Origin: Rhodospirillales bacterium
Lineage (GTDB): Bacteria; Pseudomonadota; Alphaproteobacteria; Rhodospirillales; UBA2165
DNA length: 64,000 bases
Direction of reading: 5' to 3'
Assembly: GCA_046582495.1 (NCBI GenBank)
Contig: JAYGEG010000067.1
Span: forward strand, 13,666 to 77,665
Part shown: one piece after another, positions 1,876 through 57,792 of the stretch
Numbering within the stretch: position 1 is the first letter of the stretch
Layout: the number at the start of each line of letters is the position of its first letter
Notes under the pieces: generated by a model
Database searches by the model: none
The model's input: only the letters and a program-made list of their open reading frames with translations
What the model was told of the DNA's origin: nothing
Translations under genes and position numbers: made by a program

Positions 1876-2089
1876 TTTATTCTCCCCCAATATTGACGAT
1901 ATTCTGGTTGAATTCAGTTTAGCGCAAATGCTCAAACGAGAAAACCATGGTGGTTTCAAAAGCGCGCAGAATGGCCACCAATTTTCCAAGTATTCTGAAA
2001 TCAGTCATTGAATCACTAAATTTAATCCATATCTTATAGGTATCGTGGCATATAGTGGTACTCACATTTTGAACCCTCCCAATCTTAAA

Positions 2090-2859
2090 ATGCATCCTTT
2101 TAGATCGGCATTAATGCCTATTGTTTTGGCAATTGGGTTTGCGTATTCGAGCCCTGCAAGTTCAGCCGATAATTCCAATCAAAACACCATTCGCTTCGGC
2201 ATGGCCGCGGCAGAATACCCACCCTATTTGATTTATAAAGATGAAAGCTTGCGTGGTATCGTCGGCGATACATTCTTTAAAATTTCAGAGTCTATGGGAT
2301 TCAAAATCAATTTAACAGTCCTTCCCAGAAAACGACTTCAATATAAAATTAAAAATGGCGAAATTGATGCCTATGCCACTGCTCTCGAGTGGGTAAAATA
2401 CACTTCTGATCATATCTGGACGGACGGCATCATTCGAGTTTTGGACAATGTCATTATGGTCAAAGATCACAGAACGAGCATCACAAGCGCGCGAAAATTG
2501 GCGGGTAAAAATATCGCTGTAATGAGCGGCTACAAATATCCTTCGCTGGATAAAATGATCAAAGATGGAACGGTTAAAGCGATCCAAGCTAATCGTTTTG
2601 AAAGTCTTCTCCGCATGGTCGAATTTCTGCGCGTCGATTACGGCATTTTAGATAAAATGTCGCAAACTGGACGATACAAAAGCAAAATCTCATATTCAAA
2701 AAACCGCTACACATCGCCACGCCGGGTTTCGACGCGGTCGAATTTCGGATCGTCATGTTCTCCCAATAATGGGCACCCGTTGTTCAAAAATTCAATAAAG
2801 CCTTGGCCAAATTTAAATCAAGCAATGGCTGGTCGAAACTCTTGGACAAGTACCGCTAA
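2090..2859 (+). pseudogene. family-3 periplasmic solute-binding protein (amino-acid ABC type), frameshifted and carrying an in-frame stop
   Basis: Signal peptide MHPFRSALMPIVLAIGFAYSSPASSA. The reading frame is lost at the A4 run 2654-2657. The continuation NVANWTIQKQNLIFKKPLHIATPGFDAVEFRIVMFSQ*WAPVVQKFNKALAKFKSSNGWSKLLDKYR is in another frame and contains a TAA at 2767-2769. Confidence 0.75.
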
Positions 2860-3044
2860 TCTGCCGCCAGGTGGAAATTCGGAGTTGAATGCGAAATTGC
2901 CACCTCCTCATCGGACATATCCGCTTCAACATTGTCAAATAACGGTGTGCTAAGATAGCGCTCACCGGTATCGGGCAACATGCAAAGGATTGTCGCACCA
3001 CTGCCGGATTTAACGCTCATTGCCGATCCTAAATCTGTGATCAT
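2856..3044 (-). pseudogene. C-terminal fragment of a cysteine synthase (CysK/CysM-like PLP enzyme)
   Basis: GSGATILCMLPDTGERYLSTPLF is the typical CysK C-terminal motif. Only about 55 codons are present and nothing lies upstream. Confidence 0.6.
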
Positions 3045-3231
3045 TCGAAAGTTTAAACTTCTAAACGAAGGGTATTCACGCGGCAGCTACGCCTATGGCG
3101 TCGCCCATCCGATCATCCTGGTATTAGATCAATCCGGCCGCATCACCCACCGCTTCTCCGAAACGGGCTATGTCAGCCGGCCGTCGATTGATTTGGTCTT
3201 GAGGGCGTTGAGCGGCAAAGGTCAAGGTTAG
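2980..3231 (+). pseudogene. C-terminal fragment of a redoxin/peroxiredoxin-like protein
   Basis: LTLIADPKSVIIRKFKLL...YGVAHPIILVLDQSGRITHRF resembles the distal half of AhpC/TSA-redoxin proteins. The catalytic N-terminal half is missing, and a stop lies 8 codons upstream of the ORF start. Confidence 0.45.
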
Positions 3232-3408
3232 GCCATCATCACCCCTGGCTTCATCCTCCCCTACCGGCCAATTACAAATCAAACTGCTTTTTCTAAATGT
3301 TTTAATAATTGGAGTGCAATTGACATTTACAGCCAACAATCAATTCGCATAGCATATCAATCTGTCCGGTTAAGCGTGGATCTCCGGACCTACGGATAGG
3401 GATTTAAC

Positions 3409-3768
3409 ATGAAACAACAAATTGACCGGTCCAAGACGATCCCCGGAACGATGATCTTCGATGGGCTGCGAAGCCATAAAGGCTACCGTATCAACAAGCT
3501 AGCCTTCTCAATGAACATTGCTGAAAACCGGGACAGTTATGTGGCCGATCCGGAAGCTTACATGGATCGCTATAATTTGACCGAAGAAGAGAAAAAGCCG
3601 CTGCGCGAGAAAGATTGGCTAGGCGTCGTCAAGGCGGGCGGTAATATTTATATGATTATGAAAATCGGCGTTCTACTCGGTGAAGGCCTTTATCCCATGG
3701 GCGCCCAACAGAAGGGCATGACCTATGACGAGTTTCTTAAATCCCGCAACGTTGGCGGGGCGACTTAA
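3409..3768 (+). CDS. ligA: protocatechuate 4,5-dioxygenase alpha subunit (LigA family)
   Basis: 119-aa ORF immediately upstream of a LigB-type subunit. Size and sequence are LigA-like. Confidence 0.8.
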   Translation: MKQQIDRSKTIPGTMIFDGLRSHKGYRINKLAFSMNIAENRDSYVADPEAYMDRYNLTEEEKKPLREKDWLGVVKAGGNIYMIMKIGVLLGEGLYPMGAQQKGMTYDEFLKSRNVGGAT

Positions 3769-9657: not shown

Positions 9658-9662
9658 GGTAT

Positions 9663-9702
9663 TTGTAATAAAGGTTCCAGGAACCTTTATTACAATGTTA
9701 AC
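9663..9702 (+). repeat. REP element copy 1 (33-nt palindrome plus TGTTAAC tail)
   Basis: TTGTAATAAAGGTTCC-A-GGAACCTTTATTACAA followed by TGTTAAC. It is identical over 40 nt to 10413-10452 and overlaps the RAYT stop codon. Confidence 0.9.
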
Positions 9703-10359
9703 TATTTTTTCGAGGGCGACCACGTTTTCCAGAAGAAAACTTTAGTCCAAAACTTTCTTGCAGCATTCCAAGAAATTTTTCATCGCCTGCAGGAATTCCT
9801 TTATTTGTTGATGTCCGCAAAGAATTAAGGCGCGACTCACTCGGCTTGATCGACAGAAAATCCGCCCAATTACCTATTCTTTCTGCCAACGACGATTGAA
9901 CAACCATATCATCCCGGCATTGCCCCAAATGTGTCGGAGCACTGCTCCAGTTCCATTCATTGGCATATTTTACTAAATTCGAACGAACGGGGTTTTGTTC
10001 CACATAGCGCATAGCGGACAATGTATGGGCTTCGTCCATAACACAGGAATAAAATCGCTCCTGCCAAAGATGACCCGTCCAATCCATGCGTTTATTGATC
10101 ATTCTTGAATAGCGCCGATGAACCTGCCCGACCATTGAACTCAAACCATCAGATGTTGATGGGACTACAATGAGGTGAACATGATTGGGCATTAAGCAAT
10201 AAGCCCAAATTGCAATATCTCTTCGTTGGCACCATTCTGCCAACAATAATTTATAAGCTTGATAATCTCCGGGACCAAAAAAGTCTGTTGCCGCCGTGTA
10301 CCCCGTTGAGTTACGTGGTGCGGCATTCCGGGAACAATAAGGCGTGGGTTACGTGGCAT
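9698..10359 (-). mobile_element. REP-associated tyrosine transposase (RAYT, IS200/IS605 TnpA-like HUH enzyme), reading frame broken by a 1-nt frameshift
   Basis: The N-terminus MPRNPRLIVPGMPHHVTQRGTRRQQTF (ATG at 10359) is in one frame. FFGPGDYQAYKLLLAEWCQRRDIAIWAYCLMPNHVHLIV...MRYVEQNPVR is in another. That second part carries the HUH motif HVH and a Tyr-helix region. The two frames join at the A6 run 10277-10282. Confidence 0.85.
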
Positions 10360-10412
10360 GTAGTTAATATGCAGGGCCTAGAGGGCATTTTTCCACGCTT
10401 TGAGAAATTTAA

Positions 10413-10452
10413 TTGTAATAAAGGTTCCAGGAACCTTTATTACAATGTTAAC
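10413..10452 (+). repeat. REP element copy 2
   Basis: 40 nt identical to 9663-9702 and in the same orientation. It lies 54 nt upstream of the RAYT start and 3 nt after the methyltransferase stop. Confidence 0.9.
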
Positions 10453-10454
10453 AA

Positions 10455-11246
10455 TTACCCCGGTTTGAACGCCAAAAAAGCGTAGCCGTAGACTTCGAAG
10501 GCACGGGCGTTTGGCTCACCGCCGGCGCCGCCAAAGGTGTCTATCGGATCACCAATATCGACATTCACAAAGCCCGTGTCTTCCAACATTTTCTGCCAAC
10601 CTGCACACGGCAGGCCACCGGCAATTCAGGCGGTCCAGAGGTCAATGTTGTTGAGGGCGCCCTCCGGGACCGGTTTGCCATTGGCAATGTCGGCAAATTG
10701 CAGCCGGCCTCCTGGCCTGAGCACTCGGTAGGCTTCGCTAAAAACCCCCTGCTTGTCGGAGCAGAGATTAAAAACGCCGTTGCTGATGAGAATGTCTGCC
10801 CAACCATCTTCAACCGGCATCTCTTCCAACAGACCTTCGCGGAATTCAACATGATCGAGTTCCATGGCGACGGCCGTCACGCGAGACTTTTCGAGCATTT
10901 CTTCGGTCATATCGATGCCAATCACTTTACCCGATGGCCCGACCTGAGCAGCCGCGACAAACGAATCAAATCCGGCACCTGATCCCGCATCAACAATTTT
11001 AGCACCTTCTTCCAAAGGCATCATCGAATGCGGATTGGCAACGCCGGCAAATGATTCGACCGCTGCATCCGGCATCGGATCGACAATGGCCGCGTCATAC
11101 CCCAAGCGATGCGCCAAATAGCGCCCGGTATGAAAATGAAATTCGCCATCCGGGTCAGTCGCGACTTCCCGGTATTTTTCTTTGACTTGCTCCCGAAGCT
11201 CATCAGGATCAACCGATGGTTCAAAATTTGGTGCATCTTTTGGCAT
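10455..11246 (-). CDS. ArsM/UbiE-like class I SAM-dependent methyltransferase with an internal in-frame TGA (Sec candidate or nonsense mutation)
   Basis: SAM motif IVDAGSGAGFD. The ORF stops at TGA 10628-10626 after ...NNIDLWTA. The same frame then continues IAGGLPCAGWQKMLEDTGFVNVDIGDPIDTFGGAGGEPNARAFEVYGYAFLAFKPG* to the TAA at 10457-10455. Confidence 0.7.
10598..10616 (-). promoter_or_regulatory. candidate bacterial SECIS-like hairpin downstream of the in-frame UGA
   Basis: The mRNA reads UGA-AUUGCCGGU-GGCCUGC-CGUGU-GCAGGUU. This is a 7-bp stem (2 G-U pairs) and a 5-nt loop containing G. The loop begins about 17 nt after the UGA. Confidence 0.3.
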
Positions 11247-11370
11247 AAAATTCTCCCGTTGCTTACCAGCAAGTATGCCATATTTTGAGCCTCAACGGGG
11301 GGCCATTCGTTAAATATTTATGAACGAAGCAAAAGAATCAAAAAATATTTACAAACAGGCCAACTAAGTA

Positions 11371-11439
11371 TTGACCCAAATTTCAATTAGCCTACTATAT
11401 CTAGTGGTCGATGGGCCATCTTGACGACATATATGGGAT
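11371..11439 (+). promoter_or_regulatory. putative nrdAB promoter with two NrdR-box-like sites
   Basis: TTGACC (11371-76), a 16-nt spacer, then TACTAT (11393-98). Box 1 is CTACTATATCTAGTGG (11392-11407). The weaker box 2 is ACGACATATATGGGAT (11424-11439). The box centres are 32 bp apart. Confidence 0.45.
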
Positions 11440-11750
11440 CAAGAGGCACATGGGGAGCCGATCGGGAAGTGGGAGACATCATCCAACACCGGTTTTACCT
11501 AAGGATTTCAAGTGGTTAGCGCCATATTTACGAAGTCAGCGCACTATTTATTTCGACACCCCCGTTCACATGGGCCATCGAAATAGGTCAGGGGATAGTC
11601 GTTTTAAGGTCTGCTCATCCATACCAAAGACCAAACCGTCAGGAAGGACGGATTAATAGGGGCATGCGATCCTCAGCTTTGAGATCACCGTCATATCAAT
11701 CCAGCTTCTTGGTTAATGCGAACCAGCAAAGTAACGGAGGTCTCTAAATA

Positions 11751-13607
11751 ATGGATGGCAATATGCTGGATTCAATCCAAACGACAAAAGGTCCGCGTGT
11801 AAAAACAGACAGCGAGCGGGACGTCAATCTCACCGATTTTGGCAAGGCTGTTTTAGAAGATCGTTACTTACTCCCCGACGAAAGCTACCAAGATTTATTT
11901 GCCCGCGTTGCCAGTACTTACGGCGATGACGATGAGCACGCCCAGCGCATTTATTCCTATATGAGCAATCTTTGGTTCATGGCCGCAACACCCGTTCTCA
12001 GTAATGGTGGTGCCGGACGCGGATTGCCGATCTCGTGCTTCTTAAACGAAACCAGTGATAGCCTGGACGGCATTGTTGCCCTTTGGACCGAAAATGTTTG
12101 GCTCGCCTCCAGCGGCGGCGGCATTGGCAGCTATTGGGGCAATCTGCGCTCTATCGGCGAACAGGTCGGCCTGGCCGGCGGCAAAACCTCGGGCGTAATT
12201 CCGTTTATTCGGGTGATGGATTCTTTGACGCTTGCGATCAGTCAAGGCTCGCTGCGCCGCGGCTCGGCGGCGGTCTACCTTCCGGTCAACCACCCCGAAA
12301 TTGAAGAATTTATTGAACTACGCCGACCAACTGGCGGCGATCCCAACCGTAAAACGCCCAACCTCCACCACGGCGTTTTGATCTCGGACGCGTTTATGCG
12401 GGCGGTTGAAAATGATGAAGAATGGGCTTTGTTGAGCCCGAAAGATCAGGCTCCTGTGCGCAAAGTTACTGCGCGTTCAATTTGGATCCGGCTTTTGACC
12501 GCACGTGTCGAAGTCGGTGAGCCATATCTGATCTTCTCGGATACCGTCAATAAAGCGATGCCGGAACATCACAAACTTGCCGGCCTGACGGTTAAGACAT
12601 CAAACCTCTGCAGCGAAATCACCCTGCCGACCGGTACCGATCATCTCGGCAATGAGCGCACAGCGGTTTGCTGTTTGTCCTCGCTCAATTTGGAAAAATA
12701 TAGCGAGTGGAAAGATGATCCAGTCTTCATTGAAGATATCATGCGTTTCTTAGATAATGTTCTGCAGGATTTCATCGACCGCGCGCCGGACAATATGGCA
12801 AAAGCAAAATACTCAGCCATGCGGGAACGCTCTGTTGGTCTCGGCGCGATGGGTTTCCATTCCTTCCTGCAAGCCAACATGGTGCCGTTCGAAAGCGCCA
12901 TGGCAAAAGCCTGGAATTTGAAAATTTTTCGCCACATTCAAGCCGGCGTCGATGCCGCCTCTCAATCTATCGCAGAAGAACGCGGCGCCTGTCCCGATGC
13001 CGCCGATTACGGCATGAAGGAGCGTTTCTCTAACAAAACAGCAATCGCGCCGACGGCTTCAATTTCGATAATTTGCGGCGGTGCCAGCCCTGGCATTGAG
13101 CCAATTAGCGGCAATAGCTACATGCACAAAACGCTGTCCGGTTCCTTCAATGTGCGCAACCGTCATCTCACCGCTTTGCTGGAAGAAAAAGGCTGCAATG
13201 ACGAAGAGACTTGGAGTTCCATTACCGTCAAAGAAGGCTCGGTTCAGCATTTGGATTGCCTGACCCAAGATGAAAAGGATGTATTTAAAACCGCGTTTGA
13301 GTTGGATCAACGCTGGGTGATTGAGCTCGCAGCCGACCGCACGCCTTATATTGATCAGGCGCAATCGGTGAACGTCTTCTTGCCGGCAGATGTCCACAAA
13401 CGCGATCTCCACCAAATTCACTTTACCGCCTGGAAGCGCGGCATGAAGAGTCTTTATTATTGTCGCTCCAAATCAATCCAACGGGCCGAAGATGTCTCAA
13501 CCAAAGACGCAGGCTTCGAGAGCGCCAATGATGCGATTGCAATCGAGCAGCCATTAGCTGCATCAAGTGAATCAACAGATTACGAAGAATGCTTGGCCTG
13601 TCAGTAG
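11751..13607 (+). CDS. nrdA: ribonucleoside-diphosphate reductase alpha subunit (short class I type)
   Basis: 618-aa ORF with RNR catalytic-core motifs (LSNGG, SNLCSEI, C-terminal CLAC pair). It is followed by nrdB. Confidence 0.9.
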   Translation: MDGNMLDSIQTTKGPRVKTDSERDVNLTDFGKAVLEDRYLLPDESYQDLFARVASTYGDDDEHAQRIYSYMSNLWFMAATPVLSNGGAGRGLPISCFLNETSDSLDGIVALWTENVWLASSGGGIGSYWGNLRSIGEQVGLAGGKTSGVIPFIRVMDSLTLAISQGSLRRGSAAVYLPVNHPEIEEFIELRRPTGGDPNRKTPNLHHGVLISDAFMRAVENDEEWALLSPKDQAPVRKVTARSIWIRLLTARVEVGEPYLIFSDTVNKAMPEHHKLAGLTVKTSNLCSEITLPTGTDHLGNERTAVCCLSSLNLEKYSEWKDDPVFIEDIMRFLDNVLQDFIDRAPDNMAKAKYSAMRERSVGLGAMGFHSFLQANMVPFESAMAKAWNLKIFRHIQAGVDAASQSIAEERGACPDAADYGMKERFSNKTAIAPTASISIICGGASPGIEPISGNSYMHKTLSGSFNVRNRHLTALLEEKGCNDEETWSSITVKEGSVQHLDCLTQDEKDVFKTAFELDQRWVIELAADRTPYIDQAQSVNVFLPADVHKRDLHQIHFTAWKRGMKSLYYCRSKSIQRAEDVSTKDAGFESANDAIAIEQPLAASSESTDYEECLACQ

Positions 13608-43860: not shown

Positions 43861-43891
43861 TGTAATAAAGGTTCCAGGAACCTTTATTACA
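43861..43891. repeat. REP element copy 3 (31-nt palindromic core)
   Basis: TGTAATAAAGGTTCC-A-GGAACCTTTATTACA is identical to the core of the RAYT-flanking REPs. It fills the 38-bp gap between convergent genes. Confidence 0.9.
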
Positions 43892-55333: not shown

Positions 55334-56447
55334 TTGGTAGAATTTGAATTGAATACCATTATTAAAAAAGTCGGAATTCTTGGCGTATCGGTAGCGGTCG
55401 CTGCGATGGCTTTTGGATCAGTTGCAGAAGCAGCTTCCATAAAAGGCAATAAAATTACGATGCGCATTGGCTCTGGCCACCCGCCCTTCATCACTTATGT
55501 GAAAGGCGCGAGTAAGTCTTTTGTTCCAGCCGTAAAAAAACGTGTTGCCGCTGAAACAAAATACACCATCGATTTCAAAGAACACTATGCCGGTACCGTT
55601 GTTGGCGTATTTGATACCCTAGAAGGTGTACAGGACGGACGCCTCGACATTGGCGCATTTTGTGTTTGTTTTGACGATGACAAAGCGATGGCCATGAACT
55701 TGACCTACTATGTGCCTTTCCATGAGCCAAATGCGGTCAAAAACCAAAAAATATTTTTTAATCTGGTGAAAAAACATCCTTCACTCCAACAAGATTTTTC
55801 CAAGCGATACAAGCAAACGCTGATCGGTATCGGTGGTTTCAACAATTACGGCATGCTAAGCGCCTTTGACTGAAAAAAATTTGAAGATCTGAAAGGCCGC
55901 AAAATATTGGCGGCGGGACCCAACCTTTCGTGGGTTGTTGCCGGTATCCCTGTTCGTATGACCATTCCAAAATCTGCTCAACAAATGCAGACCGGTGTGG
56001 GCGAAGCGGTCATTTTGTTTCCAGACACTGATTTTAAATTGAAGCTTCATGAATCGATTAAAGGTGGCTACTACACGGTTACTGACTTTGGTGCTGTGGT
56101 TCAGATCAATTTGAACATGAACAATAAGACGCGTAAAAAATTGCCCCCAGAAGTCGTCAAAATTATTGACGAAGAAGGCGTTAAATACGGTGAAACGGTC
56201 GCTCAATGGTCTCAGAAAGACCATCAGTGGGGCCCGGATCAACTCGCCAAAGCAGGCACGAAAGTTCGCAACATTGATCCCGCCGCTAAAGTAGCGTGGG
56301 CGCAAAAATTGGCAGCCTGGCCAAACGAAAAAGCTCAAGCTGTTAAATCCAAAAAGAAAATCGACATGTCCTATGATCATGCGCGATTACATCAAAATGG
56401 TCGAAGCAGGCGGTCACAAATTTCCGATTAATTACGTTATTAAATAA
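55334..56447 (+). pseudogene. DctP-family TRAP solute-binding protein, inactivated paralogue of 56695..57792
   Basis: It is colinear with the downstream paralogue. There is an in-frame TGA at 55871-55873 where the paralogue has Trp (SAFD*KKFEDLKGRKILAAGPN). A frameshift near 56370-56378 precedes the conserved tail IMRDYIKMVEAGGHKFPINYVIK*. Confidence 0.8.
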
Positions 56448-56694: not shown

Positions 56695-57792
56695 ATGAGT
56701 AACGTACTATCTAAACTAAGCGTCATTGGCGCGGCTGCTGCCACCATTGTTGCCTTTAGTGCAACAACTCACGCAGCTTCGGTAAAAGGAAATAATATTA
56801 CGCTGCGAATTGGCTCAGGCCATCCACCGTTTATTACCTACGTGAAGGAAGTTTCGAAATACTTCGTCCCAAATGTGACAAAACGTGTCGCAGCGGAAAC
56901 CAAATATAAAATCACCTTCAAAGAGCATTATTCCGGCACCGTTGTGAACGTGTTTGATACGCTCGAAGGAACCCAAGACGGTCGCCTCGATATTGGCGCT
57001 TGGTGTGTTTGCTTTGATGACGATAAAGCCATGGCAATGAACCTTTCTTATTACGTGCCATTTGGTGAACCTAATGCCATTAAAGCAACCGCCACATTCG
57101 GCAAATTAATTCAGCAGCATCCAGACATTCAAAAAGACTATGAAAAACGCTATAAACAGAAGCTGTTGGCAGTTACTGGCTTTAACAACTATGGCCTGCT
57201 CAGTGCCTTTGATTGGAAAAAATTTGAAGACCTAAAAGGTCGTAAAATCTTAGCCGCTGGACCGAACCTTCCATGGGTGAGCGCTGGCATTCCAGTTCGT
57301 ACGACGATTCCGAAGGCTGCTCAGCAGTTACAAACAGGTGTTGGCGAAGCTATCGTGCTTTTCCCGGACACTGATTTTAAATTGAAATTGCATGAAGCCA
57401 TCGGCAAAGGCGGATTTTATACGATCACCGACTTTGGTGCAGTTGTGCAAATTTCTCTGACGATGAATTTGCGGTCGCGTAAAAAACTGCCGCCTGAAGT
57501 CGTTAAAATCATTGATGAAGAAGCAATGAAATACCAAACGCATTCTTCACAGACCTCTCAGAACGATCATCAATGGGGTCTCGATAAATTGGCAGGCGCA
57601 GGCATCACAGTTCGTAAGATTGATCCCGCCGCTAAAATTGCCTGGGCAAAAAGTTTGGCTGCATGGCCAAATTCACGGGCCCAAGCCGTATCGAAAAAGA
57701 AGAATATCGATATGGGTAAAATCATGCGCGCCTTCATGGACGCCACACGAGCCGGTGGGCACAAATTCCCGGTTGATTATGTGATTAAATAG
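56695..57792 (+). CDS. dctP: DctP-family TRAP solute-binding protein (intact copy)
   Basis: Signal peptide ...AFSATTHA, 365 aa. RIGSGHPPFITYVK...LEGTQDGRLDIG blocks. GGGAG RBS. Confidence 0.8.
   Translation: MSNVLSKLSVIGAAAATIVAFSATTHAASVKGNNITLRIGSGHPPFITYVKEVSKYFVPNVTKRVAAETKYKITFKEHYSGTVVNVFDTLEGTQDGRLDIGAWCVCFDDDKAMAMNLSYYVPFGEPNAIKATATFGKLIQQHPDIQKDYEKRYKQKLLAVTGFNNYGLLSAFDWKKFEDLKGRKILAAGPNLPWVSAGIPVRTTIPKAAQQLQTGVGEAIVLFPDTDFKLKLHEAIGKGGFYTITDFGAVVQISLTMNLRSRKKLPPEVVKIIDEEAMKYQTHSSQTSQNDHQWGLDKLAGAGITVRKIDPAAKIAWAKSLAAWPNSRAQAVSKKKNIDMGKIMRAFMDATRAGGHKFPVDYVIK

Follow-up and report, generated by a model that had tools for sequence, protein, structure and literature searches.

An in-frame TGA that very probably encodes selenocysteine in an ArsM-like methyltransferase gene of a marine Rhodospirillales-like bacterium

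A gene on the minus strand of a 64-kb stretch of DNA from an uncultured marine Rhodospirillales-like bacterium (contig JAYGEG010000067.1, positions 13,666-77,665; the whole of this stretch is called the window below) is interrupted by an in-frame TGA codon at window positions 10628-10626. We consider it very probable that this codon encodes selenocysteine (Sec), residue U207 of an intact and translated ArsM-like methyltransferase dependent on S-adenosylmethionine (SAM). The Sec reading follows from a Cys/Sec pair with homologous proteins, the conservation of the TGA, a covarying hairpin directly downstream, selection on the frame past the TGA and the linkage of the gene to sel genes in relatives. 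From these comparisons we infer that selenium is actually incorporated in the window organism, and we regard the bacterium as a probable selenocysteine user.

Translation of the open reading frame (ORF) at 11246..10626 gives 206 aa ending in ...NNIDLWTA, followed by the TGA; the same frame then runs on through 56 sense codons (IAGGLPCAGWQKMLEDTGFVNVDIG...AFKPG) and closes with the TAA at 10457-10455. An earlier reading made from the letters alone (the sequence-only reading) had described a methyltransferase ORF stopped by a TGA behind which the frame continues undamaged, and the translation confirms this; its figure of 57 additional codons includes the TAA stop. If the TGA is decoded, the predicted peptide across it is LWTA-U-IAGGLPCAGWQK. 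In tblastn the matches of relatives extend over query residues 1-263. Residues 79-208 match class I SAM methyltransferases in Pfam (PF13847, 96.6 bits; also PF08241 and PF13649; Methyltransf_31/11/25). The top NCBIfam matches are of the ArsM type (NF041537, 219 bits; NF008823, 210 bits with U replaced by C), every NCBIfam match lying under its curated cut-off for the stand-alone 263-aa form, and the best matches among structures of the Protein Data Bank (PDB) are ArsMs (E = 3e-24 to 3e-21), headed by 5EVJ (3e-24) and followed by 4FR0, 4KW7 and 5EG5 (about 2e-21). The coordinates of the gene and its elements are collected in Table 1.

Table 1. Features of the methyltransferase locus in window coordinates
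Feature	Position	Strand	Details and basis
Predicted complete selenoprotein gene, 263-aa ArsM-like SAM-dependent methyltransferase	10455..11246	-	206 codons + Sec-TGA + 56 codons + TAA; Pfam, NCBIfam, tblastn
In-frame TGA, very probably selenocysteine U207, motif U-I-A-G (UxxG), residues 207-210	10626..10628	-	homologue alignment
C-terminal stretch of 56 codons whose translation depends on decoding of the TGA	10458..10625	-	dN/dS, stop-free frame, extension length
SAM-binding glycine-rich motif VDAGSGAGFD, residues 85-94	10965..10994	-	aligned to LDLG(A/C)G(S/T)GRD of ArsM structures
Cys162 (NLC), candidate partner of U207	10761..10763	-	Cys in all Sec forms
GGGAGA resembling a Shine-Dalgarno site, 5 nt upstream of the start codon ATG (11246)	11252..11257	-	direct sequence reading
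Putative bacterial SECIS-type hairpin	10594..10623	-	lower stem 10623-10619/10598-10594, bulge GUG 10618-10616, upper stem 10615-10610/10604-10599, loop CGUGU 10609-10605
Palindrome of the repetitive extragenic palindromic (REP) type, perfect, abutting/overlapping the methyltransferase TAA stop	10410..10456	.	repeat search; one of two copies flanking the RAYT gene

The sequence-only reading had placed the TGA at a conserved ArsM cysteine. Indeed, the codon aligns with the last arsenic-binding Cys of the solved ArsMs (Cys220/Cys224; Cys224 in CmArsM) within ...GEC-LGG/LAG-A. It had also suggested asking whether relatives carry Cys or TGA in this column, and both are found, each at a different level of search. 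Among the 120 best protein homologues, 108 have Cys at this position and 3 have Trp, while 8 are truncated and 1 is unmatched. The truncated proteins end precisely at ...DLWTA, and every one of the closest protein relatives (80-86% identity) is an ORF of 205-215 aa with the same ending; full-length homologues (about 63-69% identity) carry Cys. At the DNA level, genomes were scanned with each species represented once, which gave 80 loci. The codon at this position could be read in 79 of them (the remaining one, L016, was matched by neither search pattern), and it is TGA followed by IAGG... in those 79, which come from metagenome-assembled genomes (MAGs) labelled Rhodospirillaceae, other Alphaproteobacteria, Beta- and Gammaproteobacteria, Acidimicrobiia and Nitriliruptoraceae. 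Scanning metagenomes with a Cys-form query gave 76 scored loci: 66 TGA, 6 TGC and 4 TAG. An identical 206-aa ORF was present on 18 environmental contigs of the same species, with the same neighbours (nrdA, methyltransferase, Y1 transposase, GST). The locus thus shows two marks of a bacterial selenoprotein gene, namely a TGA that aligns with Cys in homologues and a UGA kept at the same codon in the orthologues of other genomes. Because public gene calls stop at the TGA, Cys forms prevail in searches at the protein level, although TGA forms prevail in scans of DNA; the subfamily itself appears to be predominantly selenoprotein in nature. In these public calls (NCBI, JGI, ENA, Tara; clusters P0001, P0003-P0008 and P0024) the Sec forms are cut at the TGA to 205-215 aa and labelled 'methyltransferase domain-containing protein' or 'arsenite methyltransferase'.

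A third mark of such genes, coding evolution in the same frame 3' of the UGA, is seen as well. Comparing the window with relatives, we obtained ratios of nonsynonymous to synonymous divergence (dN/dS) of 0.05-0.14 for the part past the TGA and 0.04-0.10 for the part preceding it, with strongly diverged synonymous sites (pS 0.35-0.84). Variability past the TGA is 0.135/0.107/0.365 for the three codon positions, i.e. about 3-fold higher at the third than at positions 1 and 2. No in-frame stop occurs within 52 codons after the TGA in the 79 loci, and the extension past it measures 55-57 codons in 77 of them. These substitution patterns indicate that the downstream frame is under purifying selection equal to that on the upstream part. 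They also bear on the possibility of a recent nonsense mutation, i.e. a pseudogene whose downstream frame is still open for want of time. Decayed genes are indeed present in the window, such as ORF 55334-56431, with a TGA at a Trp codon of its paralogue, and a RAYT gene with a 1-bp deletion, and machinery for Sec was not found within its 64 kb, both of which would suit such a mutation. However, TGA stands at the same codon in the 79 genome loci read and also in 66 loci of metagenomes, from different phyla; the low dN/dS after the TGA persists despite a heavy synonymous divergence from the nearest relatives, with pS at 0.35-0.74; and the true pseudogene of the window (55334-56431) carries a second lesion. 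Because the TGA is conserved and the frame past it is under selection, we regard a recent nonsense mutation as excluded for all practical purposes.

Directly downstream of the TGA lies a hairpin with the properties of a bacterial selenocysteine insertion sequence (SECIS). Starting nine nt past the UGA, the mRNA reads GGCCUGC-CGUGU-GCAGGUU, which the sequence-only reading had taken for a hairpin with a G in its loop and a spacing in the SECIS range. Folding 49 nt from the UGA with ViennaRNA bore this out, giving an 11-bp stem with a 3-nt bulge at -15 kcal/mol. The constraints published for bacterial SECIS elements are a loop of 3-9 nt, an upper stem of 4-16 bp, a G within the first two positions of the loop, a distance of 16-37 nt separating the UGA from the loop, and a minimum free energy (MFE) of at most -7.5 kcal/mol (PMC13188914). 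The hairpin agrees with all of them: its loop has 5 nt and a G at position 2, its upper stem has 6 bp, the spacing is 16 nt and the energy is that given above. It shares with the bSECISearch consensus (PMC13188914) the location just 3' of the Sec-UGA within the coding region, a small apical loop in whose first positions G is followed by U, and a bulged stem; it differs in being without an Rfam family, in its loop CGUGU and in a stem made from the codons for G-G-L-P-C-A-G-W.

In fact, it is the comparison among relatives that distinguishes this structure. We aligned 78 sequences, 73 of them distinct. The upper 6-bp stem is 93% paired in the distinct sequences, compared to 21-52% when the partner is slid, and the whole 11-bp structure is 90% paired across relatives. 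The upper stem contains 17 compensatory cells (4.2 expected), a number reached by none of 500 shuffles. The main compensatory change, from G-C to U-A in 15 distinct sequences, combines a synonymous CTG-to-CTT with a GCA-to-GAA exchange. On one same-species environmental contig the hairpin is polymorphic: an A-to-G change there makes a U-G pair of a U-A pair. The upper stem is 94% paired in 134 distinct TGA sequences and only 46% paired in 8 distinct TGC sequences. TGA orthologues therefore keep the hairpin, with compensatory changes, and TGC orthologues do not, which answers a question left by the sequence-only reading and is the pattern expected of a selenoprotein gene. For the Actinomycetota, where the peptide P-C-A is replaced by P-R-A, the alignment read by eye suggests that the stem has moved by 2 nt while the CGUG loop start is kept; the shifted stem has no support from fold prediction, as L053, the sole actinobacterial sequence folded, gave a different MFE structure that was no better than shuffles. 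If read rightly, a shifted stem with a kept loop would point to RNA-level rather than protein-level constraint. We also noted that Cys214, found in 84% of Sec forms, corresponds to a UGU/UGC codon in the SECIS loop and may be an RNA-imposed residue.

Several results weigh against the Sec reading and have to be set beside this evidence. With ARAGORN we found no tRNA gene, and hence no selC, in the 64-kb window; selA, selB and selD were not found among its ORF translations, and tblastn searches of the window with SelB, SelD and a PrdB-like protein of two relatives (L024, L072) returned no match. Taken as a single sequence, the hairpin does not stand out significantly from shuffles (z = -1.62; 15 of 200 shuffles fold as well). 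The hairpin has no match in Rfam, either at the gathering threshold over the whole window or at E <= 10 over 10400-11800. Given the 78 aligned sequences, RNAalifold chose a rival 6-bp hairpin nearer to the UGA (alignment columns 15-20/28-34), which is 96% paired. Finally, the protein scores 210.4 bits against the NF008823 cut-off of 263. We derive the significance of the SECIS-type hairpin solely from the comparison with relatives, i.e. from pairing in register and compensatory changes, and not from the single fold. The rival hairpin was rejected as a SECIS: its columns are 95% paired in shuffles too, only 3 compensatory cells are found, and its loop lies 8 nt from the UGA. It is possible that it forms as an alternative fold.

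Machinery for Sec is found next to the gene in other genomes. In seven relatives (L014, L024, L036, L041, L049, L069, L072) selB, tRNA-Sec or selD lies beside the methyltransferase gene. L024 has selB (TIGR00475), tRNA-Sec (anticodon TCA, 2800-2895), the methyltransferase gene (3001-3756) and selD (NF002098, 533 bits; cut-off 299). The same four genes are found in L036; selD adjoins the methyltransferase gene in L014, and selB adjoins it in L041, L049, L069 and L072 (264 bits, over the cut-off, for selB of L072). A further explanation must be judged against this background, namely that the UGA is read through without Sec (by near-cognate Trp or Cys), or terminates translation to leave a functional 206-aa product, with the hairpin serving pausing or mRNA stability. 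The lack of Sec machinery in the 64 kb seen of the window genome would agree with this, as would the TGG (Trp) codon of a few relatives in which the hairpin sequence is kept (L081; 3 of 120 proteins). Yet the column otherwise holds Cys, which is the mark of a Sec/Cys pair; tRNA-Sec, selB and selD adjoin the gene in the seven relatives, and the geometry of the hairpin is that of a SelB-type SECIS. Plain termination is unlikely because the 56 downstream codons, which include the xIAGG motif common to ArsM, are under protein-level selection. TAG variants of the Sec codon in close relatives of Blastococcus deserti (Geodermatophilaceae, a family decoding UAG as Sec) likewise speak against readthrough or termination, and overall we leave this explanation only a small probability.

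The neighbourhood in alphaproteobacterial MAGs forms a 'selenium island' (L024, 75-6093; also L036 and L014) consisting of selB, tRNA-Sec, the methyltransferase gene with its TGA, selD and a PrdB/GrdB-like gene. The latter contains an in-frame TGA of its own (...MLIPV-U-PFC..., UxxC) and, judging from this motif, probably encodes another selenoprotein. The TAG variants were observed at four actinobacterial metagenome loci (L094, L098, L105, L107), which have TAG for TGA at the Sec position and an intact SECIS sequence; the close relative Blastococcus deserti (L081) has TGG (Trp) with the same downstream sequence. Recoding of UAG to Sec, with a tRNA-Sec of anticodon CUA, has been reported in Geodermatophilaceae (PMC5330540). 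The TAG forms fit such recoding, and the TGG form of B. deserti could be a fossil of it or something else.

A variant genetic code, in which TGA would be a sense codon for Trp or Gly, might be suspected from the TGA at a Trp codon of ORF 55334-56431 relative to its paralogue, and from the relatives with TGG at the methyltransferase position. Against this stands the window itself, where 10 of 40 long ORFs end at TGA, among them gatB, topA and a GST gene, the following in-frame stop lying another 26-56 codons away; ORF 55334-56431, moreover, is frameshifted as well and hence a pseudogene, the TGA-bearing relatives belong to standard-code lineages, and most homologues have Cys, not Trp, in the column. 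We exclude a variant code, which retains next to no probability, because of the 10 long window ORFs terminating at TGA.

If U207 is selenocysteine, expression of the gene would proceed as follows. The mRNA hairpin at 10623-10594, located 2-32 nt past the UGA and exposing the loop CGUGU, would act as a bacterial SECIS and recruit SelB-GTP-Sec-tRNA(Sec) to the ribosome paused at the UGA; Sec would be put in at this codon and the 56 further codons translated. In the protein, U207 would take the place of the substrate-binding Cys224 of ArsM, adjoining the SAM site. Its selenolate, probably paired with the invariant Cys162, might hold a soft substrate, either a metalloid or a chalcogen, in place for the SN2 transfer of a methyl group from SAM, with As(III), MAs(III), selenide, sulfide and persulfide as candidate substrates.

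Which of these the enzyme uses is a separate matter. Of the features required of a functional ArsM we find the SAM-binding fold and the Cys224 position (as Sec-TGA), whereas two further cysteines are missing, which casts doubt on arsenite as the substrate. The equivalent of CmArsM Cys72 is Val (FAGVANP; FWGCGNP in 5EVJ) and that of Cys174 is Gly (ISNGVFNL; ISNCV(I/C)NL in ArsMs). Both losses extend over the whole subfamily including its Cys forms, and the Cys72 column has no conserved Cys in any form. The methylation of As(III) depends on Cys72. All methylation steps of CmArsM depend on Cys174 as well as on Cys224 (PMC3877260). The description of the protein as an ArsM-like enzyme in the sequence-only reading therefore stands as regards likeness, although with two of three As-binding cysteines absent it is no canonical ArsM; because Cys72 and Cys174 are absent, arsenite is not a safe substrate assignment. 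We examined the remaining cysteines by aligning 80 Sec forms with 108 Cys and 3 Trp forms. Cys162, located five residues downstream of the Cys174 equivalent, is Cys in 80/80 Sec forms, 3/3 Trp forms and 45% of Cys forms. Codon 199 (10650-10652), on the other hand, is Cys in 90% of Cys forms (C-x7-C) and never in Sec forms. The partner cysteine thus switches between the forms, from Cys162 in Sec forms to mostly Cys199 in Cys forms.

The gene neighbourhoods of actinobacterial relatives (L078, L081, L083, L058 and others) contain a fusion of an ArsR/BigR-like regulator with rhodanese, a fusion of an MBL-fold protein with rhodanese that is persulfide-dioxygenase-like, a DsrE-like protein and an MFS transporter. 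The methyltransferase gene in this neighbourhood is of the Sec, Cys or Trp form, and, going by these gene identities, the context is one of sulfur or persulfide rather than an ars operon. The biggest 'conserved neighbour' clusters of a first clustering consisted of shadow ORFs belonging to the methyltransferase gene itself and were discarded. Tentatively, and with more doubt than confidence, we raise the possibility that the short single-Sec subfamily comprises chalcogenide methyltransferases (selenide, sulfide, persulfide) of selenium and sulfur handling rather than arsenite enzymes, in which U207 and Cys162 would capture the substrate as an Se-Se/Se-S adduct before methyl transfer. The idea stems from the absence of two of three As ligands, the position of the gene between tRNA-Sec and selD in some Alphaproteobacteria and the sulfur-gene operons of actinobacteria.

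Selenoproteins of this kind have already been described, the Sec/Cys pair being in the literature since 2007-2008, and the window gene is an added, well-supported member of the family. Reviews (PMC9312934, PMC13188914) count arsenite (S-adenosyl)methyltransferase among the selenoprotein families of prokaryotes, give its motif as UxxG and credit it to Fomenko et al. 2007 (Science), and the Global Ocean Sampling (GOS) survey of marine metagenomes found 8 Sec sequences and 245 Cys homologues of it (Zhang and Gladyshev 2008). In the portion of the GOS survey supplements that was searched, the peptide around the Sec had no match. The window protein has in common with this UxxG family (PRK11873/NF008823) the ArsM-clade domain, U-I-A-G at the last As-binding Cys, which satisfies the UxxG motif, and the existence of Cys homologues. 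In contrast to the family, of which WP_011987699.1 is the published example, it misses the NF008823 cut-off; it is also short, at 263 aa, and has no equivalent of Cys72 or Cys174. The likeness lies in the Sec position and motif. With canonical ArsM/AS3MT (CmArsM 4FR0, Chlamydomonas ArsM 5EVJ, human AS3MT) it shares the Rossmann-fold SAM domain, GxGxG and ...C-(L/I)-(A/G)-G-(A/G). These enzymes differ from it by having Cys224 in place of Sec as well as Cys72 and Cys174, and the canonical ArsMs, with 377-387 aa, have a C-terminal domain that is missing from the window protein; moreover, the relatives of the window gene have sel or sulfur-handling genes as neighbours, not ars genes. The best NCBIfam matches over the methyltransferase domain are to the fusion selenoproteins ArsM/AhpD (NF041537), ArsM/DUF2284 (NF041536) and methyltransferase/UXPK-star (NF047649), for which the same UxxG motif is listed. 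Here the window protein reaches 219, 196 and 188 bits, far short of the respective cut-offs (510, 575 and 460), and matches profile positions 9-227 only. It has neither the second domain nor the additional Sec of these fusions, being a single domain with a single TGA and no AhpD, DUF2284 or UXPK tail.

The short subfamily is covered by no curated model, and gene callers truncate its members. For annotation, the window gene should be called as one 263-aa selenoprotein. In addition, the comparison yields a SECIS alignment with good support for a family that is common among bacteria of the sea and of soil. Furthermore, the absent ArsM cysteines together with the sel and sulfur neighbourhoods cast doubt on the routine label 'arsenite methyltransferase', which is used for inferring arsenic methylation potential in metagenomes.

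Immediately downstream of the methyltransferase gene lies the gene of a REP-associated tyrosine transposase (RAYT, Y1_Tnp; 9698-10359, minus strand), flanked by two copies of the REP-like palindrome (TTGTAATAAAGGTTCC.GGAACCTTTATTACAA). Three copies are found in the window (9660-9706, 10410-10456 and 43863-43889), where 0 matches are expected by chance, and the first two are those at the RAYT gene; the copy at 10410-10456 may act as a terminator. The RAYT gene is split by a 1-bp deletion in the window and intact, as a 220-aa ORF, in metagenome contigs of the same species (L085-L088). ORF 55334-56431 (plus strand) and its tandem paralogue 56695-57792 (plus strand) are solute-binding protein genes that are 66% identical. 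At a position where the intact copy encodes Trp by TGG, the former has TGA, and it diverges at the C-terminus in a manner that suggests a 3' frameshift. We considered it as a second selenoprotein gene and ruled this out on account of at least two lesions, which make it a pseudogene; the remark in the sequence-only reading that the other pseudogenes of the window each carry several lesions holds for this one, the one checked. ORF 2045-2953 (plus strand) resembles a periplasmic substrate-binding protein, the last ~80 residues of which look like out-of-frame low-complexity sequence (…SPRRVSTRSNFGSSCSPNNGHP…), and from this appearance it may be another frameshifted pseudogene.

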